Shown here: positions 2,543 to 17,816 of the stretch, one piece after another
Numbering within the stretch: the stretch's first letter is position 1
Layout of the letters: every line of letters begins with the position of its first letter
From: Candidatus Rokuibacteriota bacterium
GTDB lineage: Bacteria; Methylomirabilota; Methylomirabilia; Rokubacteriales; CSP1-6
DNA length: 18,814 bases
NCBI GenBank assembly: GCA_016184305.1
Contig: JACPCX010000159.1
Location: 1-18,814, forward strand
Direction: 5' to 3'
The notes under the pieces: generated by a model
Told to the model about the DNA's origin: nothing
Database searches by the model: none
What the model saw: only the letters and a program-made list of their open reading frames with translations
Made by a program: the position numbers and the translations under genes

Positions 2543-2546
2543 GGTG

Positions 2547-4355
2547 TCACCTCGCTTCAGCCGGGTGGCCGGGGACGGCTCCCGGCGCATCCGGCAGCGC
2601 GGCCCTCAGCAGGGTCGTGGCCGTCCGGTCCAGGGTCCAGGAGACGAGTCCGTCCGAGCCCGCGCGCGGATCGAGGACGACGCCGTACTCCTCCCGGGCC
2701 TGCTCTCGGCTGATGTAGCCCAGGACGGCATCGCGCAACACCCGTTCGGGGTCGCGCTCCAGCGGGTCGCCGTAGCCGCCACCGCCGGGGGAGAGGTACT
2801 CCACCACCTCACCCCGCGCGAGATTCCGGCGGCCTTTCGTGACGAAGGGCAGCCGGAACCCGCCCTCGGGGCCGCCGAAGACGACATCGGCGCCCCCGGC
2901 CGGCTTGCCCCCGAGGACGCCGAAGGGGAGGAAGTCCCGCCTGTCCCCGAGCACCGCCACCGCGATCTCGCCGGTGAGGCTGCGATAGCGGTACGCCGTG
3001 CCGCAGCCCCCGCGATGGCGTCCGGCCCCGCCCGAGCCATCTCTGATGGCCAGCCTTTCCACTCGCACCGGCACCCGATGCTCCACGGATTCCACCGAGG
3101 GAAAGTTGGCGGCGCCCAGCGCCGTGGTCCCGTTGACCAGTCCGTCCCCCTGGGGATTGCCCCCGTAGCCACCGGCCCCGGGGAAGAGCATCACGTAATA
3201 GTTGCCGCGCTCGGGATGCGTCCCGGCCATGGTGATGACGCCGGTGGTGCCGAACAGGTCGGCGGGGGTGCGCTCGGGGAGCGCCTGGCTCATGGCTCCG
3301 AACACCACCGAGATGACGCGTCCCACCGATTCCAGGTAGCCGCTGATGGGATACGGGTACTCCGCCCCCACGAACGTGCTCGGCGGAATCACGTAGTCGA
3401 AAGGCCGGAAGCAGCCCCCGTTGATCGTGACCTCGGGGAAGATGTGCTTGATGGCGATCTGGCACGAGGCGATGCAGGTCTTGCGGGGCAGATTCACCGG
3501 CCCGCGGGCAGGGGCCGAGGACCTGGTGAAGTCGAAGGTCATGCGGTCCCCGGCCACCGCCAGCGCGAGGTGGACGAGCAGCGGACTCGGGACGTGGCCG
3601 TCATTGTCCACGGCGTCCTCGAAGACGTAGGTGCCGTCGGGAATCTCGCGGATCAGGGCGCGCATGTGCTGCTCCGAGCGGTCGTTCAGCTCGTCGAAGC
3701 AGGCATTGACCGTGTCCGCTCCGTAGCGGGCGATGAGGTCGGTGTAGCGACCGGCCCCGACTTGCAGGGCGGAGACGACGGCCTGGAGGTCGCCCCGACG
3801 CTCCTCCGGGACGCGGACATTGTCGAGGAGAAGCCCCAGCAGATCCTCCTGGAGCCGTCCCTCCCGGTAAAGCGGGACCGGGTTGATGAGAAGGCCTTCC
3901 TGGTGGATCTCGGTGGCGCCCGGGGCGAACCCCCCCGGGGTCGAGCCCCCGATGTCGTTCCAGTGGCCACACGCCGCCAGCAGCGCCAGGATCTCCTCGC
4001 CCTGGAACACGGGCATGACGAGCTTGACGTCCGGCAGGTGGGTGCCCCCGAGATAGGGATTGTTCAGGATGTAGATGTCTCCCGGCCTGAAGCCGCCCCG
4101 GCGCCCTGCCGCGGCCATCGCCGCCTGGACGGAGAACTGCATCGCCGTCATGAAGATGGGCAGGGTGAGCCGTCCCTGGGCCACCACCTCGCCCGTCCGC
4201 GGATGGAAGACGCCGCTGGCCCGGTCCAGCTGCTCCGAGATGACGGGGGAGAACGCGGCCCGGACGATGATGGCGTCCATCTCGTCGACGATCTGCTCGA
4301 GGCCGCCCTTCACCACCGCGAGGGTGATGGGATCGACGAGCGTCGAGGGATTCAT
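2547..4355 (-). CDS. hyuB: Hydantoinase B/5-oxoprolinase-family subunit (metal-binding subunit of an ATP-dependent lactamase/carboxylase)
   Basis: Start MNPSTLVDPITLAVV at 4355 overlaps the upstream stop (ATGA). Motifs: RAAFSPVISEQLD, NNPYLGGTHLPD, GHWNDIGGSTPGGF...EIHQEG, DGSGGAGRHRGGCG, SPGGGGYGDPLERDPERV..D...GYIS. Confidence 0.92.
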   Translation of the reverse strand: MNPSTLVDPITLAVVKGGLEQIVDEMDAIIVRAAFSPVISEQLDRASGVFHPRTGEVVAQGRLTLPIFMTAMQFSVQAAMAAAGRRGGFRPGDIYILNNPYLGGTHLPDVKLVMPVFQGEEILALLAACGHWNDIGGSTPGGFAPGATEIHQEGLLINPVPLYREGRLQEDLLGLLLDNVRVPEERRGDLQAVVSALQVGAGRYTDLIARYGADTVNACFDELNDRSEQHMRALIREIPDGTYVFEDAVDNDGHVPSPLLVHLALAVAGDRMTFDFTRSSAPARGPVNLPRKTCIASCQIAIKHIFPEVTINGGCFRPFDYVIPPSTFVGAEYPYPISGYLESVGRVISVVFGAMSQALPERTPADLFGTTGVITMAGTHPERGNYYVMLFPGAGGYGGNPQGDGLVNGTTALGAANFPSVESVEHRVPVRVERLAIRDGSGGAGRHRGGCGTAYRYRSLTGEIAVAVLGDRRDFLPFGVLGGKPAGGADVVFGGPEGGFRLPFVTKGRRNLARGEVVEYLSPGGGGYGDPLERDPERVLRDAVLGYISREQAREEYGVVLDPRAGSDGLVSWTLDRTATTLLRAALPDAPGAVPGHPAEAR

Positions 4356-6388
4356 GGCTGTCTCGCCTCCAGGATGAGGTTGCCGAGCCTGTCCACGCGC
4401 GCCGTCGTGTCCGGCTCCAGGACGGTGGTGCAATCGGCCTGCTCCACGATGGCCGGACCGGCCAGCTCGCTGCCGGGGGGCAGGGCGGCCCGGGCATACA
4501 CCGGCGTGTCGTGATAGCGGCCGTCGAAGTACACGGCCCTCCGTCCCTGCGGGATCCCTGTCAGGGCGGACCCGGCGGCCACCCAGCTGCCGATGTCGAG
4601 CCTGGGCCGCAAACCCAGCACCGTCACCCTGAGCGTGGTGAGCCGCACCGGCAGCCCGTCCAGGGTCTGCTTGTACTCGCTCCGGTAGGCCTCGGCGAAG
4701 GCGGCGGTGATCCCCTCCGGGCTGAGCTCGGGGGGGAGGGTGACCCGGATATTGTGCCGCTGGCCCTCGTACGCCATGTCTGCCGCCAGCAGCACCTCCA
4801 CCCGCTCCACCGGCACCCCCTCGTCCTGGATGAGCCGGGTTCCGTCCGCCACGGTCTCCCTGACCATGGCGCGGAAGCCCTCCGGATCCAGCTCATCCAG
4901 GCTCCGCATCACCGTGCGCACGAAGTCATGGCGCACGTCCGCCGTCACGCAGCCGAGCGCGCAGAGGACCCCGGGATAGTACGGGATGAGCGAGCGGCCG
5001 ATCCCCACGTCCTTCATGAGGGCCGCGGCGTGCAGCGGCCCGGCGCCCCCGAAGGCCACCAGGGCGAAGTCCCGGGGATCATGGCCCCGCTCCACGGACA
5101 CGACCCGGATGCGGCCCGCCATGTTGTTGTTGGCCACCCTGATGATCGCGCTGGCGGCCTCCTCGAGCGCGAGCCCCAGGGGCTTCCCCACCTCGGCCTC
5201 GATGGCCCGGGAGGCCGTTTCCGGATCCATCTTCAGGCCGTGCTCGCCCCCGAGAACAAAGCCCGGGTTGATCCGGCCGAGGACGAGGTTGGCGTCGGTC
5301 ACCGTGGGTCGGGTGCCGCCCCGGCGGTATGCCGCCGGACCCGGGTCCGCTCCCGCCGATTCCGGGCCCACCTGGAGGATGCCCGCCCTGTCGATCCAGG
5401 CGATGCTGCCGCCGCCGGCCCCGATGGTATGCACGTCGATCAGCGACACCCGCAGCGGCAGGCGAAAATCCAGATTGGTCTCCTCGGTCGTGCGCGGACG
5501 GCCACCCGGGATCAGGCAGACATCGAAGCTGGTGCCGCCCATGTCCGCCGAGATGACATTGTCGAAGCCGGCCAGCCGCGCCAGGTAGCTCGCTGCGGTG
5601 ACCCCGGCGGCCGGCCCCGAGCGCGCGAGGTTCGCCGGCCGCTGGCAGGCCGTGGCGCTGGACATGATGCCGCCGTTGGATTGCACGAACAGCACGTCCC
5701 GGCGAAAGCCGCCTTCCGCCAGCCTCTGCTTCAGCGCGCCGACGTACCGGGCCACCATCGGCTGCAGGTAGGTGTGCACGACGGCCGTGCTGAGCCGCTC
5801 GAACTCGTAGAGCTCCGGCAGGAGCTCCGCGGAGAGGGTGATCAGCCACCCGGGATGGAATGCCTGGAGAACCTCCTTCGCCCGCCGCTCGTGGACGGGG
5901 TTGGCGTACGAGTGGAGAAAGCAGACCACGACCGCCTCCACGCCCTTGGCCCGAAGGATCCGCGCGGCCTCGAGCACATCCGATTCGTCGAGGGGCTCCA
6001 CCACGTCGCCGCGGTGGTCCAGGCGCTCCCGCACTTCCAGCCGCAAGTCCCGCGGGATCAGCGGCTCCTGGACGCCGTGCAGGCCGTAGAGGTGGGGCCG
6101 ATCGCGGCGCCCCAGCTCGAGGACGTCCCGGAAGCCCAGCGTGGTGATGAGGCCGCAGCGGGCGCCCTTTCGCTCGATGATGGCGTTGGTCGCCATGGTG
6201 GTGCCATGGATGAAGAGGTCGATGTCACCGGCGGATACCCCGATATGGCCCATGGCGTCGAAGAGGCCGACGGACAGGTCGCGGGGCGTCGTCGACGCCT
6301 TGCTGATGCTGACGCGGCCGGTGGCCTCGTCCAGGTAGAACAGGTCGGTGAAGGTGCCACCGACGTCGATCCCGAGGAGCTTCGCCAC
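4352..6388 (-). CDS. hyuA: Hydantoinase A/5-oxoprolinase-family ATP-binding subunit
   Basis: 678 aa, GTG start. Motifs: GIDVGGTFTD, HGTTMATNA, LITTLGFRDVLE, SGPAAGV, DMGGTSFDV, TIGAGGGSIA, GPESAGADPGP, PTVTDAN, FGGAGPLH. Confidence 0.94.
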   Translation of the reverse strand: MAKLLGIDVGGTFTDLFYLDEATGRVSISKASTTPRDLSVGLFDAMGHIGVSAGDIDLFIHGTTMATNAIIERKGARCGLITTLGFRDVLELGRRDRPHLYGLHGVQEPLIPRDLRLEVRERLDHRGDVVEPLDESDVLEAARILRAKGVEAVVVCFLHSYANPVHERRAKEVLQAFHPGWLITLSAELLPELYEFERLSTAVVHTYLQPMVARYVGALKQRLAEGGFRRDVLFVQSNGGIMSSATACQRPANLARSGPAAGVTAASYLARLAGFDNVISADMGGTSFDVCLIPGGRPRTTEETNLDFRLPLRVSLIDVHTIGAGGGSIAWIDRAGILQVGPESAGADPGPAAYRRGGTRPTVTDANLVLGRINPGFVLGGEHGLKMDPETASRAIEAEVGKPLGLALEEAASAIIRVANNNMAGRIRVVSVERGHDPRDFALVAFGGAGPLHAAALMKDVGIGRSLIPYYPGVLCALGCVTADVRHDFVRTVMRSLDELDPEGFRAMVRETVADGTRLIQDEGVPVERVEVLLAADMAYEGQRHNIRVTLPPELSPEGITAAFAEAYRSEYKQTLDGLPVRLTTLRVTVLGLRPRLDIGSWVAAGSALTGIPQGRRAVYFDGRYHDTPVYARAALPPGSELAGPAIVEQADCTTVLEPDTTARVDRLGNLILEARQP

Positions 6389-6407: not shown

Positions 6408-7115
6408 CTAAAGCCCCAGGTATGAGCGCTGGACCTGGGTATTGTTCAGCAGCTCCTGCCCGGTGCCGGACAGGGTGACCCTGCCGGTTTCCATGACGTA
6501 GGCGCGGTCGGACAGCCGCAGGGCCATCCGGGCGTTCTGCTCCACCAGGATCACGGACACGCCGCGGGCGTGAATGCGCTGGACGATGCTGGCGATATCG
6601 CGGACGACCAGGGGCGCGAGCCCCAGGGACGGCTCGTCCAGGAGCAGAAGCTGCGGGCCCGACATGAGCGCCCGGCCGATGGCGACCATCTGCTGCTGGC
6701 CCCCCGAGAGACTGCCGGCGAGCTGACGCTTGCGCTCCGTCAGGATCGGAAAATAGCCATAGACCTCGCCCAGCACCAGCGCCGCCCGCCGGCTGTCCCT
6801 TTGGTAGGCGCCGATCATGAGGTTCTCCTGGACCGTCATCTCCGGAAACAGCCGCCGCCCCTCGGGACAGATGGCCACGCCGGCCCCGACGATGCCGGGA
6901 GGGGACATGCGGTCCAGACGTCGGTCGCCGAAACGCATCTCCCCGGAGGCGACGGGCACCAGGCCCATGATGGCCTTGAGCACCGTGCTCTTCCCGGCGC
7001 CGTTGGCCCCCACGATCGAGACGATCTGCCGCTCCTCCACGGTGAGCGTCACGCCCTGGAGCGCCCGCACCTTGCCGTACGAGACATGGAGGTCGCGGAC
7101 CTCAAGCCTGGGCAT
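6408..7115 (-). CDS. livF: Branched-chain amino acid-type ABC transporter ATPase (LivF-like)
   Basis: Walker A GANGAGKST, PEGRRLF, signature LSGGQQQM, Walker B LLLLDEPSLGLAP, LVEQN, C-terminal SYLG. Tandem TAG TAG stop. Confidence 0.93.
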   Translation of the reverse strand: MPRLEVRDLHVSYGKVRALQGVTLTVEERQIVSIVGANGAGKSTVLKAIMGLVPVASGEMRFGDRRLDRMSPPGIVGAGVAICPEGRRLFPEMTVQENLMIGAYQRDSRRAALVLGEVYGYFPILTERKRQLAGSLSGGQQQMVAIGRALMSGPQLLLLDEPSLGLAPLVVRDIASIVQRIHARGVSVILVEQNARMALRLSDRAYVMETGRVTLSGTGQELLNNTQVQRSYLGL

Positions 7116-7878
7116 CCTCGTCCACCCCCAGGTAGGCCGCCACCACGGCCGGGTCGTTGCGGATGCGCTCGGGCGGTCCCTCGGCGATCTTCTTGCCGTA
7201 GTTCATGACCACGATCTCCCGGCAGAGCTGCATGACGAAGCTCATGTCGTGCTCGACCACCACGATCGTGGTGCCACGCGCGTTGACCCGACGGATCAGC
7301 CGCGCCATGTGCGCGGTCTCCTCGGGGTTCATCCCCGCGACGGGCTCGTCGAGCATCAGGAGCTCCGGTTCGGTCGCGAGGCCGATGGCGACGCCGAGCG
7401 CGCGCTGGTGCCCGTACGGGAGGTTCCGGGCCAGCTCGTCCCGCGCGGCGGCGAGCTCCACGAAGTGGAGCAGCTCGAGGGCCCGCTCCCGGACCTTCTC
7501 GTCTTCCCGGGTCGCCTGCCGCGAGCCCGCGAGCCCCCTCCAGAACCCGACCCGGCTCCGAACGGCGCAGCCGCGGAGGACGTTCTCGAGCACCGAGGAC
7601 TCGCTGTACAGCACCATCGACTGGAAGGTGCGGACCAGGCCCAGCTTGACCAGGTCATAGGGCGGCGTCCCGGTGATGCGCCGGCCCTTGAAATGCACCT
7701 CGCCCGCGCTGGGCCGGAGCTGCCCCGTCACCAGGTTGAAGACCGTGGTCTTGCCGGCACCGTTGGGTCCGATCAGCCCCACGATGCTTCCCTCGTCCAC
7801 GGTCAGGGAGAGGCCGTCGACGGCGTGAAGGCCGCCGAACTGTTTCGAGAGGCCGCGGGCCTCGAGCATGGCGCTCAC
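7102..7878 (-). CDS. livG: Branched-chain amino acid-type ABC transporter ATPase (LivG-like)
   Basis: FGGLHAV, GPNGAGKTT, RTFQ, LPYGHQR, LDEPVAGMN, VEHDM, DPAVVAAYLG. GTG start overlaps the livM stop. Confidence 0.93.
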   Translation of the reverse strand: MSAMLEARGLSKQFGGLHAVDGLSLTVDEGSIVGLIGPNGAGKTTVFNLVTGQLRPSAGEVHFKGRRITGTPPYDLVKLGLVRTFQSMVLYSESSVLENVLRGCAVRSRVGFWRGLAGSRQATREDEKVRERALELLHFVELAAARDELARNLPYGHQRALGVAIGLATEPELLMLDEPVAGMNPEETAHMARLIRRVNARGTTIVVVEHDMSFVMQLCREIVVMNYGKKIAEGPPERIRNDPAVVAAYLGVDEDAQA

Positions 7879-8909
7879 CGGTCACGTCCCTGCGCGCGCG
7901 CCGGCACCGGTTCCTCGACCGGGGCGGGCCGGCCCAGGCGGCCCAGCCAGCTGGCGAGCGCCCGGTACCGGGGGGCCAGCAGCGAGGTGACTCCGTCCGG
8001 CAGGAACCGCATGAACAGCATCAGGACGAGGCCGTAGAGGACCTGCTGCCAGACCACGTAGGCCCGCAGGAACTCCGGCAGGGGCGTGATGATCATCGCG
8101 CCGATGATCGGGCCCGCCAGAGACGAGGTTCCGCCCACGATGTTCATGAGCAGGAAGTTCACGGACTCCCAGAACGTGAAGCTGAAGGGGGCGATGTAGA
8201 GAAGGAAATGGGCGAAGAGGCTGCCGCCGAAGCCCGCCAGGAGGCAGCCGATGGAAAAGGCGATGACCTTGATCCGCATGGGGTTGTAGCCCGTGGCCGC
8301 GGCCAGCAGCTCGGACTCGCGCACGGCGTTCATCGCCCGGCCGAAGGGCGACCGGTAGAGGGCGGCGACGAAGGCCACGCCCAGCGCCAGGACCACCAGG
8401 GCCAGGTAGTAGAACGCCGCCTTCGAGCGCAGGGGCTCGGCGAGGAAGGGCAGCGTCGGGGGCTTGATGCCCACCACCCCCGTGTTCCCGCCGGTGAGCG
8501 CCGTGGCGTTCTTGCTCAGGAGGAACAGGAACTCGCTGAGAGCAAAGGTGAAGAGCAGAAAGTAGACGCCCTTCAGCCTGAGAATGACCCGGCCAACGAC
8601 GAAGGCGGCCAGCGCGGCCAGGAACCCGCCGAGGAGGAAGCCCGCGAGAAACGGGAGCCCGAGCTTCACCGTGAGCTGCGCCGAGGTATACGCCCCGATG
8701 GCCATGAACCCGGCATGGGCCAGCGAGATCTGCCCCGTCTTCAGGATCACGTTCAGCCCGAGCGCCATCAGGGCGTTGATCAGCATCATGTCGAAGAGAT
8801 GCAGCCAGAAGCTGCTCTCGAAGAGCGTGGGCACCAGGAACGCGAAGACGACCGCCAGCAGCAAGAGCCCCGGCGTGACCCAGCGGCCTCCGCGATTCGG
8901 GGAGGCCAT
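7875..8909 (-). CDS. livM: Branched-chain amino acid-type ABC transporter permease (LivM-like)
   Basis: Hydrophobic 344 aa protein with GLNVILKTGQISLAHAGFMAIGAY, RLKGVYF, LTGG..G, SPFGRAMNAVRESELLA, IVGG..SLAGP. Confidence 0.9.
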   Translation of the reverse strand: MASPNRGGRWVTPGLLLLAVVFAFLVPTLFESSFWLHLFDMMLINALMALGLNVILKTGQISLAHAGFMAIGAYTSAQLTVKLGLPFLAGFLLGGFLAALAAFVVGRVILRLKGVYFLLFTFALSEFLFLLSKNATALTGGNTGVVGIKPPTLPFLAEPLRSKAAFYYLALVVLALGVAFVAALYRSPFGRAMNAVRESELLAAATGYNPMRIKVIAFSIGCLLAGFGGSLFAHFLLYIAPFSFTFWESVNFLLMNIVGGTSSLAGPIIGAMIITPLPEFLRAYVVWQQVLYGLVLMLFMRFLPDGVTSLLAPRYRALASWLGRLGRPAPVEEPVPARAQGRDR

Positions 8910-8910
8910 G

Positions 8911-9780
8911 TCAGGCCTCGGCCCGGCCCAGGAGACCCGTGGGTTTCCAGAGCAGGATGACCATGATCATCAGGAACCCCAGCATGTCGGAGGTGAGCCC
9001 GCCGAAGAGCGTCGCGAAGATGCTCTCGGCGAACCCCAGCACCAGCCCGCCGACGAGGGCGCCGGGCACGCTGCCGAGTCCCCCCAGGATCACCACGACG
9101 AAGGCCTTCAGGAGCGCGGCCTGCCCCATGTACACGTGAAGCGAGAACACCGGTCCGATGAGCCCGCCGGCGATGGCGGCCAGCGCGCAGCCGACGGCGA
9201 AGGCGAGGCTGTAGATCCGGTTCACGGGAATGCCCTGCATGAGCGCCGCCTCGCCATCCTGGGCGACGGCGCGCAGCGCCTGCCCGACCCTGCTGTGCTT
9301 GATGAAGACGTAGAAGCCGGCGAGCACGACGAAGGCCACCGCCACGACCAGCAGCCGCTCGTGGGGAAAGGTGATCCAGCGGCTCCGGTAGATCCCGCTC
9401 ACGGGGGACGCGAGCGACAGCCCCTCGATCCCTTCCATCACGGCCATGATCCCCTGGATGGCGATCTGCAGCCCGAGGGCGCTCATCAGCATGCTCAGCT
9501 CCCGCGAGCGCAGCGGGGCGAAGACCACCTTCTCGACCACGATGCCGATCACGCCGACGGCCACCGCGGAGGCCGCCAGGGCGGCAAAGAAATTGAGCCC
9601 CATCTGGGCGTAGAGGTGATAGACGACGAATGCGCCCAGCATGTAGAACTCGCCGTGGGCGAAGTTGACCAGCCTGAGAATGCCGAAGATCAGGGTGAAC
9701 CCGAGCGCCATCAGGACATAGAACGCCCCGGCGGTCAGGCCGTTCACCAGGATCTGCGCGATCGACGACGCGGTCAGCAC
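8911..9780 (-). CDS. livH: Branched-chain amino acid-type ABC transporter permease (LivH-like)
   Basis: Probable GTG start at 9780 (the track ORF extends to 9918). QILVNGL...YVLMALGFTLIFGILRLVNFAHGEFYMLGA, GQALRAVAQD, KAFVVVILGGLGSVPGA. Confidence 0.92.
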   Translation of the reverse strand: MLTASSIAQILVNGLTAGAFYVLMALGFTLIFGILRLVNFAHGEFYMLGAFVVYHLYAQMGLNFFAALAASAVAVGVIGIVVEKVVFAPLRSRELSMLMSALGLQIAIQGIMAVMEGIEGLSLASPVSGIYRSRWITFPHERLLVVAVAFVVLAGFYVFIKHSRVGQALRAVAQDGEAALMQGIPVNRIYSLAFAVGCALAAIAGGLIGPVFSLHVYMGQAALLKAFVVVILGGLGSVPGALVGGLVLGFAESIFATLFGGLTSDMLGFLMIMVILLWKPTGLLGRAEA

Positions 9781-9798
9781 GGGCGCCCCGCCGGGGCA

Positions 9799-9824
9799 TC
9801 GGGCCCGGCCGTGGCCGGGCCCGA
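9799..9824 (-). promoter_or_regulatory. Perfect GC-rich intergenic inverted repeat downstream of the Liv-type binding-protein gene (putative mRNA-stabilising stem-loop)
   Basis: TCGGGCCCGGCC-GT-GGCCGGGCCCGA: 12-bp perfect arms. No poly-U tail on either side. Confidence 0.6.
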
Positions 9825-9845
9825 CAGCTCCAACGGCGATGGTTC

Positions 9846-11030
9846 CTACGGCTCGATCTTGGTCAGCATGACTTCCTTGCCCTTCTGCACCTGCCCGACG
9901 TAGAACGGCGCGATCCACTGGTGCCGGATGCCGTACTCGGCCTCGCCGCCCCAGACGTAGCGGCCCAGCAGCCCCTTGAACTCCTTCTGGCCCTCGAGGT
10001 GCTGGCGGAGCCCGTCGGAGGTGACGGTCTGCGCCTTCTTGATGGCGTCGAACAGCATGTGGCCCCCTTCGTAGAAGAAGATTCCCAGCGGGTTGAACGG
10101 CATCTTGTACTTGGCCTCGAACCGTTCCATCAGCGACCTGATCCTGGCGTCGTTCGGGTCCCAGGGGCTGTAGTACAGGAGCCCTTCGGCGTTGTCGGCG
10201 CCCGCGACCCTGATGATCTCCAGGGTCCCGGGGCCTCCGCCCTTCAGGAACTGCCCCTGATACCCGATCTGCCGGGCCTGTTTCAGGATGACCCCCGAAT
10301 CCACCGGGGTGGAACCGTCGAAGTCGATGATGTCGGGCTTGGCCGCCACCACCTTGGTCAGGATGGGGACGAAGTCCTGGGTCCCCCGCTCGTAGAACTC
10401 CTTGAGGACGACCTTCATGCCGGCCTTCTCGTAGCCCTTCTCGTTGTGCGACATGACCTCCTTGCCCGACTCGTCGTTGGGGGAGATGATGGCCGCCGTC
10501 CTGAGCTGGGGCCGGTTCTTCGCGAGCCAGCCGATGAGCGGCGCCGAGAACTCGCCGGTGGTGGGAGTCAGCCTGAAGGTGTAGGGCTTCTTCGCGCTGA
10601 GCGCCTTGCTGGTGTAGCTGTTGGAGAGCACCAGCACCTTGCTGCTCTCGGTGATATCGGCGATGGCCAGCATCGGGACGGACCCGAGCGGCCCCACGAT
10701 GATCTTGACCCCGTCCTGGGAGATCAGCCGCTGGGCGGCCTGGGCCGCGCCCGGACCCGTGTACTTGTCGTCATAGGCCGTGACCTTGATGGTGTAAACC
10801 GTCTCGCCGACCTGGATGCCGCCGCTCTTGTTGACATCCTCGGCGGCCAGCTCGAGGCCGCCCAGCATGCCCATGCCCCACCCGATGCCGGGGCCCGACA
10901 GGGCGGAGATGAAGCCGATATTGAGTTCCCCCTTCTTGGCCGCCTGGGGCTGAACCGGCCCCTGGGTGACCTGGAGGGCCAGCCCGACCACCGCGCAGAT
11001 GAACGCTGCCTTCAGCACTCTCCCTCGCAT
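9846..11030 (-). CDS. Branched-chain amino acid-family (LivJ/LivK-like) ABC substrate-binding protein
   Basis: Start MRGRVLKAAFICAVVGLALQV (Sec-type signal) at 11030 after GGAGGAG. IGFISALSGP, AAEDVNKSGGI, YDDKY, IVGPLGS, YTFRL, QDFVPILTKV. Lies directly upstream of livHMGF. Confidence 0.9.
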   Translation of the reverse strand: MRGRVLKAAFICAVVGLALQVTQGPVQPQAAKKGELNIGFISALSGPGIGWGMGMLGGLELAAEDVNKSGGIQVGETVYTIKVTAYDDKYTGPGAAQAAQRLISQDGVKIIVGPLGSVPMLAIADITESSKVLVLSNSYTSKALSAKKPYTFRLTPTTGEFSAPLIGWLAKNRPQLRTAAIISPNDESGKEVMSHNEKGYEKAGMKVVLKEFYERGTQDFVPILTKVVAAKPDIIDFDGSTPVDSGVILKQARQIGYQGQFLKGGGPGTLEIIRVAGADNAEGLLYYSPWDPNDARIRSLMERFEAKYKMPFNPLGIFFYEGGHMLFDAIKKAQTVTSDGLRQHLEGQKEFKGLLGRYVWGGEAEYGIRHQWIAPFYVGQVQKGKEVMLTKIEP

Positions 11031-11086
11031 CTCCCGTTCTCCTCCCCTGTCGGCTCTGAGCCGCTGTCGTGACCAGGACAAGTCCC

Positions 11087-12025
11087 CTACGGCGCTCCGG
11101 CCTCCACCTCCTTTCCAGACCCTGCCGCCGCCCCGCGCACCTTCACCCCGGCCCATTGCTCGTAGAGCGCGGTCACGGCGGCCATGTCCAGCCCCCCCAG
11201 GCCCTGCGCGTGAGCCGCCTCGTACACCTGGCGGACCGTGGAGGTGGCCAGCATGGGCATGCCCAGGCTCGCCGCCAGGCCCAGGGCCAGGGACAGGTCC
11301 TTGCGCGACAGGGCGACGCTGAAGTGCGGCGTGAAGTCTCCGGCGAGCACCTTGGGGAAACGCTTGAGGAAGTGGTGAGAGCGCCCCCCGCTGGTGGCCA
11401 GGATATCGAACAGGCGCTGGGGGTCTAGCCCCGCTCTCACCCCGAGCACCATCGCCTCGGCGGCCACGACCATGTTGCCCATGGACATGACATTATTCAC
11501 CAGCTTCACGACGTGCCCGGACCCCAGCGGGCCCACGTGGTGAATCTCGGCGCCCAGCGTCTTCAGGACGGACCGGCACCGCTCCAGCACCGGCGCCTCC
11601 CCGCCCACCAGAAAGACCAGCTTGCCACTGCCCGCCTCCGCGGGGCCCCCGCTCACCGGAGCGTCGAGGCAGTCCGCCCCTCGGGCGGCGGCCGCCGCGG
11701 CGACCTCGCGCCACGTGTCAGGATCGATGGTGCTCATATCGACCAGGGTCATCCCCGGGCGCAGGCTCGAGACGACACCGTCAGGGCCGAGATAGGCCCG
11801 CCTCACGGCCGGGGGATCGGTGAGGCTCGACAGGACGATCTCCGATGCCTCGGCCACGCGGGCCGGCGAGGGGGCCAGGGTCACGCCCGCCGCCGCCGCC
11901 CGGGCCGAGCGGGACGCGTCCACGTCGTACCCGGTCACGGCATACGCGCTCGCCGCGAGGCGCCGCGCCATCGCCCCGCCCATATTGCCCAGCCCGAGGA
12001 ACCCGATTCTCGGCGTTGCCATCAT
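11087..12025 (-). CDS. NAD(P)-dependent beta-hydroxyacid dehydrogenase (3-hydroxyisobutyrate dehydrogenase/tartronate semialdehyde reductase family)
   Basis: IGFLGLGNMGGAMA, VDMSTI, LDAPVSGG, GSGHVVKLVNN (catalytic Lys), F....KDL. GGGAGG upstream. Confidence 0.92.
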   Translation of the reverse strand: MMATPRIGFLGLGNMGGAMARRLAASAYAVTGYDVDASRSARAAAAGVTLAPSPARVAEASEIVLSSLTDPPAVRRAYLGPDGVVSSLRPGMTLVDMSTIDPDTWREVAAAAAARGADCLDAPVSGGPAEAGSGKLVFLVGGEAPVLERCRSVLKTLGAEIHHVGPLGSGHVVKLVNNVMSMGNMVVAAEAMVLGVRAGLDPQRLFDILATSGGRSHHFLKRFPKVLAGDFTPHFSVALSRKDLSLALGLAASLGMPMLATSTVRQVYEAAHAQGLGGLDMAAVTALYEQWAGVKVRGAAAGSGKEVEAGAP

Positions 12026-12098: not shown

Positions 12099-13741
12099 TC
12101 AGACCTGCACCGGGTGGTCGACGAACTCGCCAAAGACCTTCCGCCACACGTCGCAGATCTCGCCGACGGTCGCGTACGCCTCGACGGCCTGGAGCGTGGC
12201 CGGAACCACGTTCTCGCCGCTCACGCTGACCTCGCGCAGCCGCTCGAGAGCCCGGTCCACCGCGGCCTGGTCCCGGTTGCGACGGAGATCCCCGAGCCGC
12301 CCGATCTGCCGGCGCTCCGACTCGGGGTTGGGGCGGAAGATCGGCATGTCCGGCTCCTCGTCCGTCCGGTACTTGTTCACCCCGACGATCACCGTCTCCC
12401 CGCGCTCCACCGCCCGGTGCTGCCGGTAAGCGCCATCCGACAGCTCCTGGGCATAGAACCCGCGCTCGACGGCGCCGAGGGCGCCCCCCATCGCGTCGAT
12501 CTTGGCGATGTAGTCGCCGATGCCGTCCTCCATCTTCTTCGTCAGCCACTCGATGTAGTACGACCCGCCCAGCGGATCGACGACATCCGCAATCCCCGTC
12601 TCGTGGGCGATGATCTGGTTCGTCCGCACGGCCAGCGTCACCGCCTCCTCGCTGGGAATGGCGAGCGCCTCGTCGTAGGAGGCGGTGCGTCCGCCCTGGA
12701 TCCCGCCGAGCATCTGCGCCAGGACCTGGAGCGTGAGCCGGATGATGTTGTTCTTCGGCTGCTGGGCGGTGAGGGGGAGCCCCGAGGTGGCCGAGTGCAG
12801 CCGGCCGCGGATGGCCAGCGGGTTGGTGGCCCCCCACCGCTCGCGCATCAGCCGCGCCCACACCTTGCGCACCGCCCGGTGCTTGGCGATCTCCTCGAAG
12901 AACTCCATGTCCGTGCAGAAGTGGATCTCGATGCCCGGCCCGAACTCGTCGACGTGCAGCCCCTGGACGCGGCCTCCTGGAGGCAGCTGCCGCCGGCCTG
13001 CTTCATGTGGGAGCCGGAGACGCTGATGGGCAGCCAGTTGGGATGCTGCCGGCTCGTGTAGGCGACGGCATCAGCCGCCAGCTTGACGGCGGGGGCGATG
13101 GGGAAGATCTGGGTGCCGCGGGCCACGTACTCCTTGATGGGGTCGTTCTGGATCTGGAGCGTGAACCGCCCCGGATCGATGCCGCGCTTGCGGCACAGCG
13201 CGATGATCCACGCCAGGAAGATCGGTCCGATGGCGTTGGCGGTGGTGAAGACATGCCCCGCCTGCTCGACGTCGATCCCGTCGAAGAGCCGCTCGACATC
13301 CGCCAGGGAGCAGAGCGCCACGCCCACGCGCCCGACCTCCCCCTGGGCCAGCGGGTGGTCGGAATCCAGCCCGATCTGCGTCGGCAGGTCCAGCGCCATC
13401 GAGACGCCGCCGGTGGCGCCCTGATCGAGGAGGAACCGGTACCGCCGGTTGGCTTCCTCGGCGGAGCCGAACCCCGCGTAGAACTCCCAGTGCCAGAAGG
13501 CATTGCGATAGCCGGCGGCATCGCGTCCGCGCGTGTACGGGTACTCGCCGGGCAGCCCCAGGTCGGCGAGGTAGTCCCATCCGGTCTGCGCCAGCTCGGC
13601 GGGCGTGTACACCGGGCGCAGATCGAAGCCGCTGGGCGTCGTGAAGCGCGGCTTCCGCCCCGCCGCCAGCGTCTCGCGGTGGTAGCGCTCCCATTGCTCG
13701 ACCCGCTCCCGGATCTCCCTCTCCGTGTCCTCGTTCGACAT
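12099..13741 (-). pseudogene. Methylmalonyl-CoA-mutase-family large (substrate-binding TIM-barrel) subunit, divergent, interrupted by a frameshifting deletion at about 12966-12967
   Basis: N part 13741..12968 (258 codons): PGEYPYTRG, YAGFGSAEEANRRY, DLPTQIGLDSD..A.GEVGRVGV, QNDPIKEYVARGT, SGSHMKQAG..QEAA. C part 12965..12099 in another frame: QGLHVDEFGP...FFEEIAKHRA, LTAQQPKNNIIR, DEALAIP, DPLGGSYYIE, VGVNKY, ATVGEI. No DxHxxG B12-binding domain. GAGGAGG RBS. The break may be a sequencing artefact. Confidence 0.88.
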
Positions 13742-13768: not shown

Positions 13769-14161
13769 CTACGACTGCGCGGGCCGGAACTGGAACACTG
13801 GTGTCCCGCCGGGCCGGGCGGGCGCCACGGTGAGCTCGACGGCCGTCCCCGGCGCCGCCGCCCCCTCCTGCGGCGGGCAGCCGGTGATCGGGCAGAAGAC
13901 GATCGGTCCCTCCTCCAGCTCGACGAGCGCGACGATATACGGCGGCTCGAAGCCGATCGGGGCGTGGTGGACCACCGCGCTCGATCGAATGCGGCCGCGG
14001 CGCCCCACGGGCACCTCGTCGGTAGGCTCGGCCCCGCAGCCGCCACAGACCGGGCGCGCCGGGAACGAGATCCAGCCGCAGCCGCGACACCGGCTGCCGA
14101 CGAGATGCGGCGGCTCCCCGGAGGGCTGGCGATACGCGCGGGCGCCGGGCGCGGCCGTCAT
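13769..14161 (-). CDS. DUF35/ChsH2-type rubredoxin-like Zn-ribbon + OB-fold protein (thiolase partner)
   Basis: Start ATG at 14161 overlaps the thiolase stop (ATGA). LVGSRCRGCG...FPARPVCGGCG (two CxxC), GRIRSSAVVH, PYIVALVELEEG. About 130 aa. Confidence 0.9.
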   Translation of the reverse strand: MTAAPGARAYRQPSGEPPHLVGSRCRGCGWISFPARPVCGGCGAEPTDEVPVGRRGRIRSSAVVHHAPIGFEPPYIVALVELEEGPIVFCPITGCPPQEGAAAPGTAVELTVAPARPGGTPVFQFRPAQS

Positions 14162-15324
14162 CGGGCGAGCACCGTTGCCACACCCGCCGCCGAGTCGCCT
14201 TCGATCCACCCGCCACTGTTCTGGGCCAGCGCGACCCGGACCCTCGCGATCTGCCGCCCCTCGGCCTCGCCGCGGAGCTGCCACACGGCCTCGGCGATCT
14301 GCGCCAGCCCGGTAGCGCCGACCGGATGGCCGCGCGAGGTGAGGCCGCCGCTCGGGTTGAACGGGATCCGCCCCGTGTGGCAGGTGTCCCCATTCTCCAG
14401 CAGGCGGGCCGCCTCGCCCGCCTTGCAGAAGCCGAGGTCCTCATAGTACAGCAGCTCCCCCGGCGAGGTGGCGTCGTGGCACTCGACCATGTCGATGTCC
14501 TCGGGCCCGAGCCCCGCCTGCTCGTAGGCGGCATTGACGGTGCGCGCCGCCGTCGAGAGCTGGCCCTCGCGGCCCGCGCCGAGTGCGCCGGAGCGGAGCT
14601 GGCAGGCGAGCACCCGGATGGCGGTGGCGCTCGCCCGGCGGCGCGCAACCTCGGCGCTGCACACGACCGCCGCCGCCGCCCCGTCGCTGACCGACGAGCA
14701 CATCAGGAGCCGGATCGGCCCGGCGATCGGGCGCGAGGCGAGGACCTCCTCGGCCGTGACTTCCTTGCGGTGCTGCGCGTACGGGTTCAGCCGCCCGTGC
14801 CGGTGGCTCTTCACGGTGACCTCGGCGAGGTGGCGCAGGGCGAGGCTGCCGCTGGCCAGCCGCGCCTGGATACGCATCGCGTAGATGGCGGTGAACTGCA
14901 GCCCCATGTCATGCGTCAGTTCCACATCCGCCGACGCGGCCAGTGCGCGCAGCGTCTGGCCGGTGTCGCCCACGAACATCTTCTCGGCCCCGACGGCGAG
15001 CGCAATGTCGCAGGCCCCGGCGCCCACCGTGAGGACGGCCTGGTGAAAGGCGGTGGCGCCGCTCGCGCAGGCGTTCTCGACGTTCACGACGGGCACGCCC
15101 GCGACCCCGGCCTCGCGCAGCGCGATCTGGCCGCGGATCGACTCCTGCCCGGTCAGGAGCCCGCCGAGGGCGTTGGCGAAGTACGCCGCCTGCACCTCGC
15201 GCGGCCCGACGCCGGCGCCGCGGAGGGCCGCCCGGGCCGCGCCCCCCGCCAGCGCCCGCAGCGGCGTGTCGGGAAACCGCCCGAAGGGGTGCATGCCCAC
15301 GCCGAGGACGAAGACCTCGCGCAT
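14158..15324 (-). CDS. SCP2-type (lipid-transfer-protein-like) thiolase-family protein
   Basis: VLGVGMHPFG, VNVENACASGATA (nucleophilic Cys), GAEKM, NPYAQ, CSSVSDGAAA, ECHDAT, NPSGGL.SRGHPVGATG, QLRGEAEGRQ. Confidence 0.92.
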   Translation of the reverse strand: MREVFVLGVGMHPFGRFPDTPLRALAGGAARAALRGAGVGPREVQAAYFANALGGLLTGQESIRGQIALREAGVAGVPVVNVENACASGATAFHQAVLTVGAGACDIALAVGAEKMFVGDTGQTLRALAASADVELTHDMGLQFTAIYAMRIQARLASGSLALRHLAEVTVKSHRHGRLNPYAQHRKEVTAEEVLASRPIAGPIRLLMCSSVSDGAAAAVVCSAEVARRRASATAIRVLACQLRSGALGAGREGQLSTAARTVNAAYEQAGLGPEDIDMVECHDATSPGELLYYEDLGFCKAGEAARLLENGDTCHTGRIPFNPSGGLTSRGHPVGATGLAQIAEAVWQLRGEAEGRQIARVRVALAQNSGGWIEGDSAAGVATVLAR

Positions 15325-15332
15325 ATGCCGGC

Positions 15333-16783
15333 TCAGCGATCCAGCCAGGCCCGCGTGAGCCCGCCGCCCGCGAAGTTCAGATACCCGCCCGCGTTGGTCT
15401 CGAAGCCCTTCAGCGCGCCGGTCCAGCCGAGGCTGGCGTCCGGGATATTCGTCCAGATCAGGGGCGCCTCGTCGATGACTGTCTGGAGCGCCCGCGTGTA
15501 CAGCTTCTTGCGCTCGCCGGGGTCCCGGGTCGTGGCCGCCAGCTCCAGCAGGCCGTCGAGGGCCGGCGTCTTGAAGCCGGAGCGGTTGTTGCTCGCCTCC
15601 TCGGAAGAGTGGAACATCCGGCGGTAGAAGTCGTCCGGATCATACCGCGCGCTGTACCAGAGATAAAACAGGTTGAAGTCGCGCTTGTTCACGCGGGCCA
15701 CCCACTCGACATGAGGATGGGCACCTCGATGCCGCCGGCGAGGCCGGCGTCCGCCATGAGCTTGCGGGCCCTGCTGAGGTCGTGCTCGCGCTCCTTGACG
15801 TCGAGGTGCCAGGGCGAGCCCTTGGAGAAGGGCTGGTTCGTCACCTGGGCGTGACCCCACAGATGCCCGTCGATCAGCGCTCTCTTGTCCACGGCGTGGG
15901 CAACGGCCTGGCGCAGCCGCGGGTCGTCGAAGGGCGGCTTGCGGGTGTTGAAGACGATGTACGAGGGGAACGAGCCGGGCCCCGTGTAGATCGTGAGGTT
16001 CCTCGCCCCGCCACGGAGTCCGTCCACGTCCTTGAACGGCACCTCCTGGATGAAGTCCAGGTCGCCGGCCCGCAGACCCGCGAGACGCGTATTGCCGTCG
16101 GCGATCGGGCGAACGACGACCTCGTCGATGTGGGGCAGCCCCTTCTCGCGATACTCCTTGAACCGCCGGAGGCGGACGTACTCGTTGGTCTTCCACTCGA
16201 CCAGCTCCCAGGGGCCGGTCCCCACCACCTTGCTCACGCCTCCCTCCGCGGGCAGCGTGCTGGCGGGAAGGATCGGCACGCGAACGGTGGCGACCTTCGT
16301 GAGGAACGGGGCGAACGGTTGCTTCAGCACGATCTTCACCCGCTGGGGATCGACGGCGCTGATGCCCTGGACGAGGGCGAAGTCGCTCCGCTGGGCGGAG
16401 GCGGTCCTGGGGTTCATGATCCGCTCGAGCGAGGCCTTGACGTCCTCGGCGGTCAGGGTCTGGCCGTTGTGGAACTTCACCCCCCGCTGGAGATTGAAGA
16501 CGTACTCGAGGCCGCTGGCGGACACCTGCCAGGACTCGGCCAGCCCGGGTTTCAGCTCGAAGTTCTTCCCGACGTCGGTGAGGCCGTCGAGGCAGAGCGT
16601 GAACAGGTTGAAGTTCGTGATCGACCGGTACTTGTGCGGGTCGGGATCGTCGAAGGCCGTCGAGAGCGCCACGCGCAGCGTCCCCCCCGCCTTCGGCCCC
16701 TGCTGGGCCGCCGCCGTCCCCCGGACACCCGCGAGCATCACCGCCGCGCCCGCCGCCCTCAGCACCTCTCGCCGACTGACCAT
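15333..16783 (-). pseudogene. Family-5 (peptide/nickel-type) ABC substrate-binding protein with twin-arginine signal, interrupted by a frameshifting deletion at about 15705-15709
   Basis: Start MVSRREVLRAAGAAVMLAGVRGTAAAQ at 16783 after GGAGGAG. PKAGGTLRV, PGLAESW, GVKFHNG, GTGPW, FNTRKPPFDDPRLRQAV...GGIEVPILMSS, then a stop at 15689. The C-terminus continues in another frame (EWVARVNKRDFNL...DPDDFY...ERKKLY...DEAP...AWLDR) to 15333. Confidence 0.86.
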
Positions 16784-16868
16784 GATCTCTCCTCCCTGTT
16801 CTCTCAGGCGCTCCTCGGCCGCGCCTGCCTCCGGCCCGGCCGACAGCCCGCGGTTTCGCACTCCGGCT

Positions 16869-17816
16869 TCACGCGACACGGACCCGCGGATCGAGGACCG
16901 AGTACATCACATCGACCGTCGTGTTGATCACGACGAAGAGCACCCCGACGACCAGGGTGACCCCCTGCACCACCGGGTAGTCCCGCGCGAAGATCGACTG
17001 GACGACCAGCCAGCCGATTCCCGGCCAGGAGAAGACCTGCTCGACGACCACCGCCCCGCCCAGGAGGGTCCCGAACTGAAGCCCGACCACGGTGACGGTG
17101 GGGATCAGCGCGTTCTTGAGCGCGTGCTTCCACACGACGCCGCGCTCGCTGAGGCCCTTGGCCCGGGCCGTCCGCACATAGTCCTGCCCGATGGCCTCGA
17201 GCACCGACGAGCGGACCATGCGCGTCACGACGCCGGCCATGGCGAGGCCGAGGGTGAGGGCGGGCAGAAGGAGGTACTGCAGCGCCTGCACCGGCTGCAT
17301 GACCACACTCGCGTACCCCTGGGACGGCAGCCACCCGAGCCCGACGGCGAAGGCGAGGACGAGGAGGATGCCGAGAAAGAAGTTTGGAACGGAGACGCCG
17401 AGGAGCGCGAAGACCATCGCGGCATAGTCGGCGCCGGTGTTGCGGCGGACGGCGGCCAGGATGCCGAGCGGCAGGGCCACCACCAGCGCCACCAGCGAGC
17501 TCGCGGCGGTCAGCAGCAGGGTCTTCGGCAGCTTGTCGGCGATGAGCGCGACGACGCTCTCGCGGTTCCGCACCGACCGGCCGAGATCGCCGCGCACCAC
17601 CCGTCCGACCCACCGGAGATACTGGTGCGGCAGGCTCAGGTCGAGGCCGAGCTCGTGGCGGAGGGCCTGCCGCGTCTGGGCGTCCACCTGGTCGGCGCCC
17701 ATCATGACGTCCACCGGGTCGCCGGGGATGAGGCGCAGCACCCCGAAGACGATGACGGACATGAAGAAGAGCACCGGGATCAGCACGAGGAGGCGGCGCG
17801 CCAGGAACTCGATCAT
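16869..17816 (-). CDS. dppB: Peptide/nickel-type ABC transporter permease (DppB/OppB-like)
   Basis: LIPGDPV, LGLD, GDLGRS, SVPNFFLG, RMVRSSVLEAIGQDYVRTARAKGL, HALKNALIP, GAVVVEQVFSWPGIG, RDYPVVQG, DPRVR. Confidence 0.92.
   Translation of the reverse strand: MIEFLARRLLVLIPVLFFMSVIVFGVLRLIPGDPVDVMMGADQVDAQTRQALRHELGLDLSLPHQYLRWVGRVVRGDLGRSVRNRESVVALIADKLPKTLLLTAASSLVALVVALPLGILAAVRRNTGADYAAMVFALLGVSVPNFFLGILLVLAFAVGLGWLPSQGYASVVMQPVQALQYLLLPALTLGLAMAGVVTRMVRSSVLEAIGQDYVRTARAKGLSERGVVWKHALKNALIPTVTVVGLQFGTLLGGAVVVEQVFSWPGIGWLVVQSIFARDYPVVQGVTLVVGVLFVVINTTVDVMYSVLDPRVRVA

Follow-up and report, generated by a model that had tools for sequence, protein, structure and literature searches.

Adenosylcobalamin (AdoCbl)-dependent acyl-CoA mutases are radical enzymes of which, to our knowledge, few specificities have been characterised: methylmalonyl-CoA mutase (MCM), isobutyryl-CoA mutase (ICM, IcmF), ethylmalonyl-CoA mutase (ECM), 2-hydroxyisobutyryl-CoA mutase (HCM/RCM) and pivalyl-CoA mutase (PCM). 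With every newly described specificity, a pathway became accessible, or a biotechnological way of making branched or rearranged acids. In MCM (MutB numbering), the substrate carboxylate is bound by Tyr89 and Arg207 and the thioester by His244 and Gln197; Tyr243 is packed against C2, the adenosyl ribose has Gln330, Asn366 and Glu370 nearby, and the pantetheine channel has a lining of small Ser and Thr side chains. His244, Gln197 and Glu370 are the catalytic residues. ICM, IcmF and PCM carry Phe (or Leu) for Tyr89 and Gln for Arg207, and HCM is defined by Ile, Asp and Gln at the positions of MutB 89, 116 and 207. In this study, a mutase large-subunit gene of a Candidatus Rokuibacteriota bacterium was analysed. 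The gene lies at positions 12099-13741, on the minus strand, of an 18,814-nucleotide stretch of about 70% G+C (GCA_016184305.1, contig JACPCX010000159.1; our C117). The whole of this stretch is called the window here; the genome comprises 3.2 Mb in 239 contigs and is 89% complete. Judged from sequence comparison, the gene belongs to a widespread but uncharacterised clade of the B12 acyl-CoA mutases, a subfamily in which the pocket is rebuilt and which has a conserved operon of its own.

Bulkier substrates have been proposed for some members of the family. The iaa cluster, which encodes the mutase IaaGH, holds hydantoinase-like genes. In the paper on this system (PMC8360864) the word 'hydantoinase' occurs 0 times; IaaGH is proposed there as a phenylsuccinyl-/benzylmalonyl-CoA mutase, a B12 mutase for a bulky substituted succinyl-CoA, encoded in a catabolic operon with a CoA ligase and a binding protein. 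The same paper describes IaaF-type dehydrogenases with 'GGG' in place of 'YEG', where the loss of the Tyr fits alpha-substituted substrates. ActD/MatB is proposed as a hexylmalonyl-CoA mutase of a split 'HCM subclass' in PMC5719088, which also places the small subunit of the actinonin cluster at a remote site in the genome. Ecm/MeaA and ActD/MatB offer a precedent for a larger 2-substituent with the carboxylate-binding pair kept.

Results

The gene encodes the large subunit of a split mutase

As deposited, the gene is split over two overlapping open reading frames (ORFs; Table 1). A stretch of 43 nt is absent from it in comparison with three intact orthologues, those of genomes G001 (99% identity, 561 aa), G003 (95%, 561 aa) and G018 (85%, about 558 aa). 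Both frames match the mutase model PF01642 (cut-off 22.1 bits), and when the second frame is read from stop to stop its match extends back to profile position 236 (301-319 bits for 236/255-512). The intact orthologue scored 566.6 bits with TIGR00641 (cut-off 303.8), a general domain model and the only NCBIfam model passed. With the NCBIfam MCM equivalog NF006944 it reached 456.8 against a cut-off of 876, a shortfall that is uninformative because this model spans a fused 721-position enzyme and because an MCM-signature split paralogue of the same genome (L002) also falls below the cut-off, at 625.

An AlphaFold2 model of the intact protein (pLDDT 92.4, pTM 0.93) was compared with solved structures by Foldseek. 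The best match was HcmA (4r3u_A, TM 0.95, rmsd 1.5, 40% identity), followed by MCMs with TMq 0.87-0.92 (4req_A 0.92). HcmA also came first in a sequence search of the PDB (4R3U, 452 bits, E 2.1e-134), ahead of the MCMs at 322-355 bits; IcmF was the most distant catalytic match at 209 bits, and the non-catalytic beta chains scored 78-86 bits. The locus is the large (substrate-binding, TIM-barrel) subunit of the split AdoCbl-dependent acyl-CoA mutase family.

The substrate pocket differs from those of MCM and HcmA

The intact orthologue was aligned by HMMER to MutB of Propionibacterium shermanii (1REQ_A; chain index plus one gives the residue number). The substitutions that a first-pass annotation had read by eye were recovered almost letter for letter, with Tyr89, Gln197, Arg207, His244 and Glu370 kept as Y88, Q198, R208, H245 and E372. 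Ser114, Ala116, Thr166, His328 and Thr365 are also kept. In the N-terminal stretch, Tyr75 is replaced by Asp, Thr77 by Ala, Met78 by Gly, Arg82 by Ala, Thr85 by His, Arg87 by Glu and Gln88 by Phe. Further changes are Phe117 to Leu, His122 to Gln, Ser164 to Val, Met165 to Phe, Thr195 to Gln, Asn208 to Gly and Tyr210 to Gln (residues 117-210); Tyr243 to Ser, Gln246 to Lys, Glu247 to Gln, Arg283 to Gly, Ser285 to Glu and Phe287 to His (residues 243-287); and Gln330 to Ala, Trp334 to Leu, Ser362 to Gly, Leu363 to Gly, His364 to Arg and Asn366 to Ala (residues 330-366). One earlier reading, SMT to FTT, needs amendment: Met165 is Phe as stated, but the aligned residues are V-F-T, with Ser164 changed to Val and Thr166 kept. 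The MCM pocket signature as read from MutB and MMUT (Tyr243, Gln330, QSLHTN and RPWTIRQY) is replaced by Ser244, Ala332, QGGRTA and AFWHWEFY.

HcmA, the closest solved relative by sequence and fold, shares with the window protein the arrangement of a split large subunit and a separate B12-binding small subunit. The two differ at the defining positions, where HcmA has Ile/Asp/Gln and the window protein Tyr88/Ala116/Arg208, and HcmA keeps SGYH, HCQT and QSLHTN where the clade described below has SGSH, HSAT and QGGRTA. HCM/RCM was rejected as an identity for the window protein on the first of these differences. Isobutyryl- and pivalyl-CoA mutases (ICM, IcmF, PCM) were rejected as well, Tyr88 and Arg208 being present. 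With MCM (MutB 1REQ, human MMUT 2XIJ) the protein has in common the family, the fold, the five retained residues and a MeaB-type chaperone in the operon. It differs from MCM in that Arg87, Gln88, Thr195, Tyr243, Gln246, Glu247, Arg283, Ser285, Phe287, Gln330, His364 and Asn366 are replaced, most of them invariantly within the clade, in being split where MCM is fused to its B12 domain, and in operon context.

Because the equivalents of Tyr89 and Arg207 are retained, a carboxylate-bearing (malonyl/succinyl-type) substrate is expected. The invariant smaller residues (Tyr243 to Ser, Gln330 to Ala, Asn366 to Ala) together with the new charged or polar groups (His364 to Arg, Gln246 to Lys, Ser285 to Glu, Phe287 to His) suggest that this substrate would be larger or carry an extra polar or anionic group.

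The pocket changes are conserved in a distinct clade

A protein database search gave at least 7998 mutase-family matches, of which the 120 best cluster representatives (56-96% identity) were used. One genome per species (185,579 species) was also scanned for 'SGSHMKQA' or 'S[IM]ALDLPTQ'. The scan yielded 203 stretches, 189 of them encoding relatives; the best 80 of these 189 were kept (79 loci). The alignment held 93 sequences. The clade is defined by the signature SGSHMKQ, ExH, H[SA]A, RTA, found in 38 rows (36 distinct); its members have a conserved operon of about ten genes.

Glu86, Tyr88, Leu117, Gln122, Phe165, Gln198, Arg208, Gly209, His245, Lys247, Gln248, Glu286, His288, His330, Arg366, Thr367, Ala368 and Glu372 are present in 36/36 distinct clade sequences, so that the carboxylate pair Tyr88/Arg208 is invariant in the clade. 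Ser244 and Ala332 are near-invariant (34/36 each, with 2 Ala and 2 Val as the respective exceptions). The same residues occupy these positions in 116-120 of the 120 database representatives; for His245, Gln198 and Glu372 the counts are 36/36 and 120/120. At the position of MutB Ser164 the clade has Val or Ile, and the positions on the CoA-adenine side (75, 77, 82, 85, 283) are variable. At a few positions next to the pocket a rokubacterial sub-branch is set apart: it has Phe87, Leu336 and, ahead of Arg366, 'QGG', where the main branch has Met, Arg and 'EQT', respectively. The canonical residues are not retained at the changed positions, and the changes are not private to the window copy.

In a maximum-likelihood tree, the 38 clade rows lie on one side of a single branch (SH-aLRT 100). 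A separate 15-row group (SH-aLRT 100) unites the sequences whose signatures we take as diagnostic of ICM (Phe/Gln), HCM (Ile/Asp/Gln) and MCM; one of the ICM-type rows, L024, comes from the unpublished genome G012. Three rows with YHRD/HSGG/QSLRTS form the sister group of the clade. Values of dN/dS between orthologues, the window against G001 included, are 0.04-0.17; the pairwise comparisons of rokubacterial orthologues gave 0.07-0.16. The earlier proposal of functional divergence rather than decay is supported, as the clade that shares the changes without variation is monophyletic, occurs widely and evolves under purifying selection. The description as a candidate new radical enzyme was overstated, the family itself consisting of known radical enzymes; what stands is an uncharacterised subfamily.

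By record titles, carriers of the clade mutase are found in Rokubacteria, Binatia and one Thermodesulfobacteriota metagenome-assembled genome (MAG); in many Actinomycetota (Solirubrobacteraceae, Conexibacter, Actinophytocola, Gaiellaceae, Acidimicrobiaceae, Nitriliruptorales); in Burkholderiales (Comamonadaceae, Ramlibacter, Limnohabitans, Aquabacterium, Lautropia, Casimicrobiaceae); and in Rhodobacteraceae and Xanthobacteraceae. The database sources name the cultured relatives Hydrogenophaga sp. BPS33 and Ramlibacter sp. G-1-2-2. The distribution is patchy, an orthologue being present in only 3/40 relatives of the window genome. The mutase of one further record, a MAG titled 'Bacteroidales bacterium' (L044), groups tightly with the Rhodobacteraceae/Pararhodobacter copies L037 and L057 and has the same operon order, as would be expected if the contig was binned wrongly or the genes were transferred recently. 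No description of the clade or its operon was found in the full-text literature, a search that left most subscription journals outside, so that a description in print is possible; the only analogies that came to light were ActD/MatB (PMC5719088) and IaaGH/IaaF (PMC8360864).

At least three further uncharacterised mutase clades (loci L062-L103) keep Tyr89/Arg207 and SALDLPTQ and have other rebuilt pockets. One, with YHRD/FAYG/QT[IL]ATS, occurs in Chloroflexota, Bacillota, Acidobacteriota and Nitrospirota; another, with YHRE/VNFS/QSLFPC, in Desulfobacterota-type MAGs; a third has YHRD/HSGG/QSLRTS. The genes of these sister clades often stand beside AMP-ligases, thiolase/DUF35 genes, reductases of the old yellow enzyme (OYE) type and enoyl-CoA hydratases.

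A conserved operon surrounds the clade mutase

The neighbourhoods of 39 loci were compared, namely the window and 38 others, of which 36 carry the signature and two (L041, L063) were taken in on 58-59% identity over shorter alignments. Many of the 39 loci are cut by contig ends, and neighbours were identified by BLAST to Pfam-checked representatives. The most frequent partners are a B12-binding small subunit (34/39 loci), an SCP-x-type thiolase (31/39), an AMP-forming acyl-CoA ligase and an MmgE/PrpD-family protein (27/39 each), a DUF35 protein (24/39), an IclR regulator (21/39), MeaB (19/39) and an Fe-alcohol dehydrogenase (Fe-ADH, 16/39). TctC is found in 12/39 loci, DctM in 10/39, acyl-CoA dehydrogenases in 9 + 7, enoyl-CoA hydratase in 8/39, an HpcH/HpaI lyase in 7/39, and hydantoinases A and B in 4 and 5 loci, respectively. 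In Burkholderiales the typical order is IclR, Fe-ADH, MeaB, two TctC genes, mutase large subunit, mutase small subunit, thiolase, DUF35, ligase and PrpD. The small subunits of the clade keep the B12-binding motif GLDGHDRG (DxHxxG).

Neither the mutase nor any operon partner reached an NCBIfam equivalog cut-off. The PrpD-like partner had zero NCBIfam matches, and the ESM Atlas gave only the generic MmgE/PrpD family for it; its PDB relatives are IRG1/cis-aconitate decarboxylase and IDS epimerase (E 5e-13 or weaker). Those of the ligase are unspecific (fatty-acyl-, feruloyl- and malonyl-CoA synthetases). The acyl-CoA dehydrogenases beside the clade mutase read 'IEG' in 6/6 full-length cases. A 'long' acyl-CoA dehydrogenase was considered as methylsuccinyl-CoA-dehydrogenase-like and rejected: its extension belongs only to the stop-to-stop frame, with the match starting from residue ~246, and its motif is IEG.

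A non-catalytic subunit, a non-CoA substrate and an altered cofactor mode had all been entertained in the first-pass annotation. Any of these, the first of them as a non-catalytic or regulatory paralogue resembling the MutA beta chain, would accommodate the changes along the pantetheine path (Ser164 to Val/Ile, Thr195 to Gln, Ser285 to Glu, Arg87 to Glu). The catalytic Tyr, His, Gln and Glu are invariant, however, a DxHxxG subunit, MeaB and a CoA ligase recur at the frequencies given above, and the beta chains of the PDB are far more distant than the catalytic chains (78-86 versus 322-452 bits). Readings of this kind are thus highly improbable. The altered cofactor mode conflicts with the DxHxxG of the partner small subunits, and the non-catalytic role with the joint presence of catalytic residues, dedicated small subunit and MeaB. 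Of the proposed bulkier or non-CoA carboxylate substrate, the bulkier carboxylate fits both the Tyr89/Arg207 pair and the smaller residues at 243, 330 and 366, whereas a non-CoA compound is at odds with the ligase in 27/39 operons.

An ordinary MCM or ECM isozyme, in which the pocket changes are neutral or compensatory, was also weighed. The equivalents of Tyr89, Gln197, Arg207, His244 and Glu370 are kept, MeaB and a canonical small subunit accompany the mutase, and database relatives are annotated 'methylmalonyl-CoA mutase', although these names are automatic annotation. At least nine positions of the pocket or channel have residues other than those of MutB, without variation within the clade, and the clade is separate from the MCM-signature sequences in the tree. 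The window genome already has an MCM-signature paralogue: its 13 PF01642 matches fall into about 10 loci, which comprise paralogues with ICM, HCM and MCM signatures as well as two, L005 and L006, that are very divergent, so that the window mutase is not the sole candidate for MCM activity. The PrpD-like protein, the ligase, the BbsB-like thiolase/DUF35 pair, the Fe-ADH and the carboxylate transporters are foreign to propionate and ethylmalonyl-CoA metabolism. We regard such an isozyme as unlikely. Unlike Ecm and ActD/MatB, the clade is found without crotonyl-CoA carboxylase/reductase or epimerase genes and without a biosynthetic cluster, and its context is catabolic. The window genome further contains 19 B12-binding-domain matches, and its B12-mutase set is unusually large for its 3.2-Mb size.

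A more specific form of the favoured reading, set out in the Discussion, is a mutase of aryl- or alkyl-succinyl-CoA or of substituted malonyl-CoA, similar to IaaGH or ActD/MatB. Apart from these precedents, it draws on the hydantoinase A/B genes near the mutase in the window and four other clade loci, on the window thiolase, which is closest to the benzoylsuccinyl-CoA thiolase BbsB, and on the smaller residues at 243, 330 and 366, which leave room for a substituent. As in the IaaGH system, the operon is catabolic with a CoA ligase, and genes for hydantoinase A/B and for a Liv-type transporter lie on the mutase strand of the window. The dehydrogenases, however, read IEG and not the 'GGG' given for IaaF in PMC8360864, from which it follows that the clade operon is not an iaa operon. 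A family III CoA-transferase was not seen among the recurrent neighbours of the clade loci. Neither an IaaF-type dehydrogenase nor a counterpart of the CoA-transferase IaaL was found near clade members. The conserved partners are instead PrpD-like, Fe-ADH and thiolase/DUF35 genes; the PrpD-like protein, the Fe-ADH and tripartite tricarboxylate (TTT) or tripartite ATP-independent periplasmic (TRAP) transporters in most operons are left unexplained by the iaa pathway. The family to which G041 belongs (the genome of locus L083, with the title Propionivibrio sp.) was sampled with 151 genomes; seven of them had a match at E <= 1e-130, and 0/7 carried the clade signature. The iaa operon was sought there too, but the four mutase neighbourhoods fetched were without hydantoinase or dehydrogenase context, and IaaG was not identified among these matches. 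An IaaGH- or ActD-like activity is rather unlikely, if a little less so than a plain MCM or ECM.

The G041-family genomes hold other mutase variants, with the pockets NHAQ/LGGT/QICDLR and AHRD/GVVS/QSIFTC (L127/L129 of G184:C1; L125/L126). A small subunit is near each of them, and a ligase or MeaB near one.

The break in the window copy

The first-pass annotation had advised joining the two frames. The break is not a simple frameshift: DNA alignment with G001, G003 and G018 places the absence of 43 nt (14 codons + 1 nt; residues ~259-273, 'FTINNGIAYVEAVRA') at the point where the frame changes (Table 1). The junction carries a short GCG/GCGC microhomology, and its exact placement is ambiguous by a few bases. 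In the AlphaFold model the missing residues are part of the barrel helix 253-272, so the deletion, if real, would be destructive.

Contigs of four public sequencing runs (at least three studies) were aligned to window positions 12400-13500, and low-identity contigs of other organisms were set aside. Junction-spanning contigs carry the missing stretch in 4/4 runs (38 extra letters + 5-nt overlap), with 0, 0, 2 and 6 flank mismatches in X1, X2, X5 and X9, respectively. The best-matching run contains 0.94 of the sampled words, and its contig has the intact form. The deleted form was not observed in any contig of the four runs. About 3 kb upstream, a second gene is split in the same manner: a SBP_bac_5 solute-binding protein (15333-16879, minus strand) lacks 97 nt near 15705. 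A short repeat of the GGGTGGGC/GTGGGTGG kind flanks this gap, and in G003 the reading frame is open over 556 aa. The occurrence of two such internal gaps within 3 kb suggests faulty assembly of the window contig.

A real and recent pseudogene, in which the small subunit left the operon and the deletion destroyed a barrel helix, would explain the deposited deletion and frameshift and the lack of an adjacent small subunit and MeaB in this genus; the junction microhomology is compatible with replication slippage. Against it stand the intact form in all four runs, the halves of the gene, which are 99% identical to intact G001 with dN/dS of 0.04-0.09, the similar gap in the SBP_bac_5 gene and the cognate-looking small subunit described below. 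A pseudogene is accordingly quite improbable, and the intact contigs, the high identity with low dN/dS and the second gap indicate that the break most likely arose in assembly or represents a rare variant, and is not a fixed pseudogene.

Genes around the mutase and an orphan small subunit

The features of the window are listed in Table 1. The window shares with G001 and G003 the gene order thiolase, DUF35, mutase large subunit, 3-hydroxyisobutyrate-dehydrogenase-family gene and Liv-type transporter.

Table 1. Positions of the mutase gene, its parts and its neighbours in the window
Feature	Position	Strand	Details
ORF 1 of the mutase	12848-13741	minus	297 aa; PF01642 profile positions 1-220, E 2.6e-66, 224.7 bits
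ORF 2 of the mutase	12099-12908	minus	269 aa; PF01642 profile positions 255-512, E 1.6e-89
N-terminal mutase part	12967..13741	minus	residues 1-258 of the 561-aa intact form; 99% identity to G001 orthologue; WEFYAGF (Tyr89 equivalent), QIQNDP (Gln197), ARGTQ (Arg207), SGSHMKQAG (His244 kept, Tyr243 to Ser)
Junction, 43 nt absent	12966..12967	minus	cause of the frame change
C-terminal mutase part	12099..12965	minus	residues 274-561 + stop; 99% identity to G001; GIEIHFC, HSATSG (Gln330 to Ala), QGGRTASYDEA (His364 to Arg, Asn366 to Ala, Glu370 kept)
DUF35 protein (ChsH2-type zinc ribbon + OB fold), directly upstream of mutase	13769..14284	minus	PF12172, PF01796
SCP-x-type thiolase-like protein, DUF35 partner	14158..15324	minus	Pfam Thiolase_C_1, Thiolase_N
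SBP_bac_5 protein, two frames	15689-16879 and 15333-16196	minus	97 nt absent versus G001 and G003
3-hydroxyisobutyrate-dehydrogenase-family oxidoreductase, immediately downstream of mutase	11087..12025	minus	Pfam NAD_binding_2, NAD_binding_11
Liv-type ABC transporter	6408..11156	minus	binding protein 9846-11156; permeases 8911-9918, 7875-8909; ATPases 7102-7878, 6408-7115; Pfam
Hydantoinase/oxoprolinase A and B	2547..6388	minus	Pfam; NCBIfam caprolactamase and acetophenone carboxylase models below cut-offs

The DUF35 ORF overlaps the thiolase gene, because of which its true start is probably downstream of 14284; its similarity to BbsA is weak and below the cut-off. The closest solved chain to the thiolase is BbsB (7PXP_C, E 5e-66), with an archaeal acetoacetyl-CoA thiolase just behind. 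The oxidoreductase scored 221 bits with the NCBIfam HIBADH model, below the cut-off of 291.6, and occupies the slot that the B12-binding small subunit has in other clade members. A LivK-like gene stands beside the operon in 4/39 loci including the window, and L025, L061, L058 and L034 likewise have HydA or HydB close to their mutase gene; hydantoinases A and B possibly belong to the same catabolic unit as the mutase. An Fe-S flavoenzyme of the FadH/OYE type is also encoded downstream on the same strand (window 569-6388), below the BaiCD and mycofactocin-OYE cut-offs.

Two other rokubacterial loci, L025 and L016, have the small subunit adjacent to the mutase. In the window genome, an orphan small subunit (P0121) is encoded on a 3.6-kb contig, C93 (L116:1822-2355, minus strand). 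Its identity to the L025 and L016 small subunits is 75-80%, against 54-58% for the next-best B12-domain paralogue of the genome. The orphan keeps DxHxxG and is flanked by an NAD-epimerase/dehydratase gene and LivG/LivF/LivK genes. By sequence similarity, the orphan is likely the relocated partner of the window mutase. The remote small subunit of the split-type ActD, noted above (PMC5719088), is a precedent and parallels the situation in the genus of the window.

Discussion

We consider it probable that the window gene specifies a working AdoCbl mutase of a distinct conserved clade, with a carboxylated acyl-CoA other than methylmalonyl-CoA as the putative substrate. This reading follows from a catalytic and cofactor apparatus that is intact and under selection, and from the mutase's own small subunit, chaperone and CoA ligase in the operon. 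Several points weigh against it. All four residues that bind the carboxylate and thioester of methylmalonyl-CoA are kept, and a plain MCM or ECM-like activity is possible. The residue counts are partly circular, the clade being defined by its signature; the tree used all columns. In the genus of the window the small subunit and MeaB are outside the operon. The window copy as deposited is broken, and the public contigs examined (Logan) drop rare variants, leaving room for a minority deleted allele.

If the enzyme works as its relatives do, a separate B12-binding subunit of ~140 aa (His-on, DxHxxG) would deliver AdoCbl, with MeaB as the chaperone by homology. Homolysis of the Co-C bond would yield the 5'-deoxyadenosyl radical, which would abstract a hydrogen from a CoA thioester carrying a free carboxylate. 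The carboxylate would be held by the equivalents of Tyr89 and Arg207 and the thioester carbonyl by those of His244 and Gln197, and the thioester group would migrate 1,2 to interconvert a substituted malonyl-CoA and a substituted succinyl-CoA. The invariant replacements (243, 330, 366, 364, 246, 247, 285, 287) are predicted to enlarge and re-charge the pocket. In place of methylmalonyl-CoA, the most likely substrate is a dicarboxylyl- or tricarboxylyl-CoA that is bulkier or has an additional anionic group. The operon's own acyl-CoA ligase would supply it, and further processing would be carried out by the BbsAB-like thiolase/DUF35 pair and the PrpD/IRG1-like enzyme.

By analogy, the operon partners would fit the catabolism of a substituted di- or tricarboxylic acid. 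This suggestion comes from the PrpD/IRG1-like enzyme, whose family acts on tricarboxylates, from the TTT and TRAP carboxylate transporters, and from the BbsB-like thiolase, which by analogy would cleave a 2-acyl-succinyl-CoA. A further step, which we put forward tentatively and with somewhat less than even confidence, is that the clade carries out a rearrangement new to B12 mutases, on a substituted succinyl- or malonyl-CoA with a bulky or anionic group (for example, tricarboxylate-derived). Such a reaction could be the key step of a widespread undescribed catabolic pathway in soil, groundwater and freshwater bacteria, with the PrpD/IRG1-like protein, the acyl-CoA ligase and the BbsAB-like thiolase, possibly docked onto the mutase by way of DUF35, as its other enzymes.

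The window copy is a caution for genome interpretation, an apparent pseudogene in a MAG being here most likely an assembly artefact. The presence of carriers among cultured relatives makes discovery of the substrate by assay or genetics directly feasible. More generally, the automatic annotation 'methylmalonyl-CoA mutase' hides a substantial unexplored diversity of radical enzymes.

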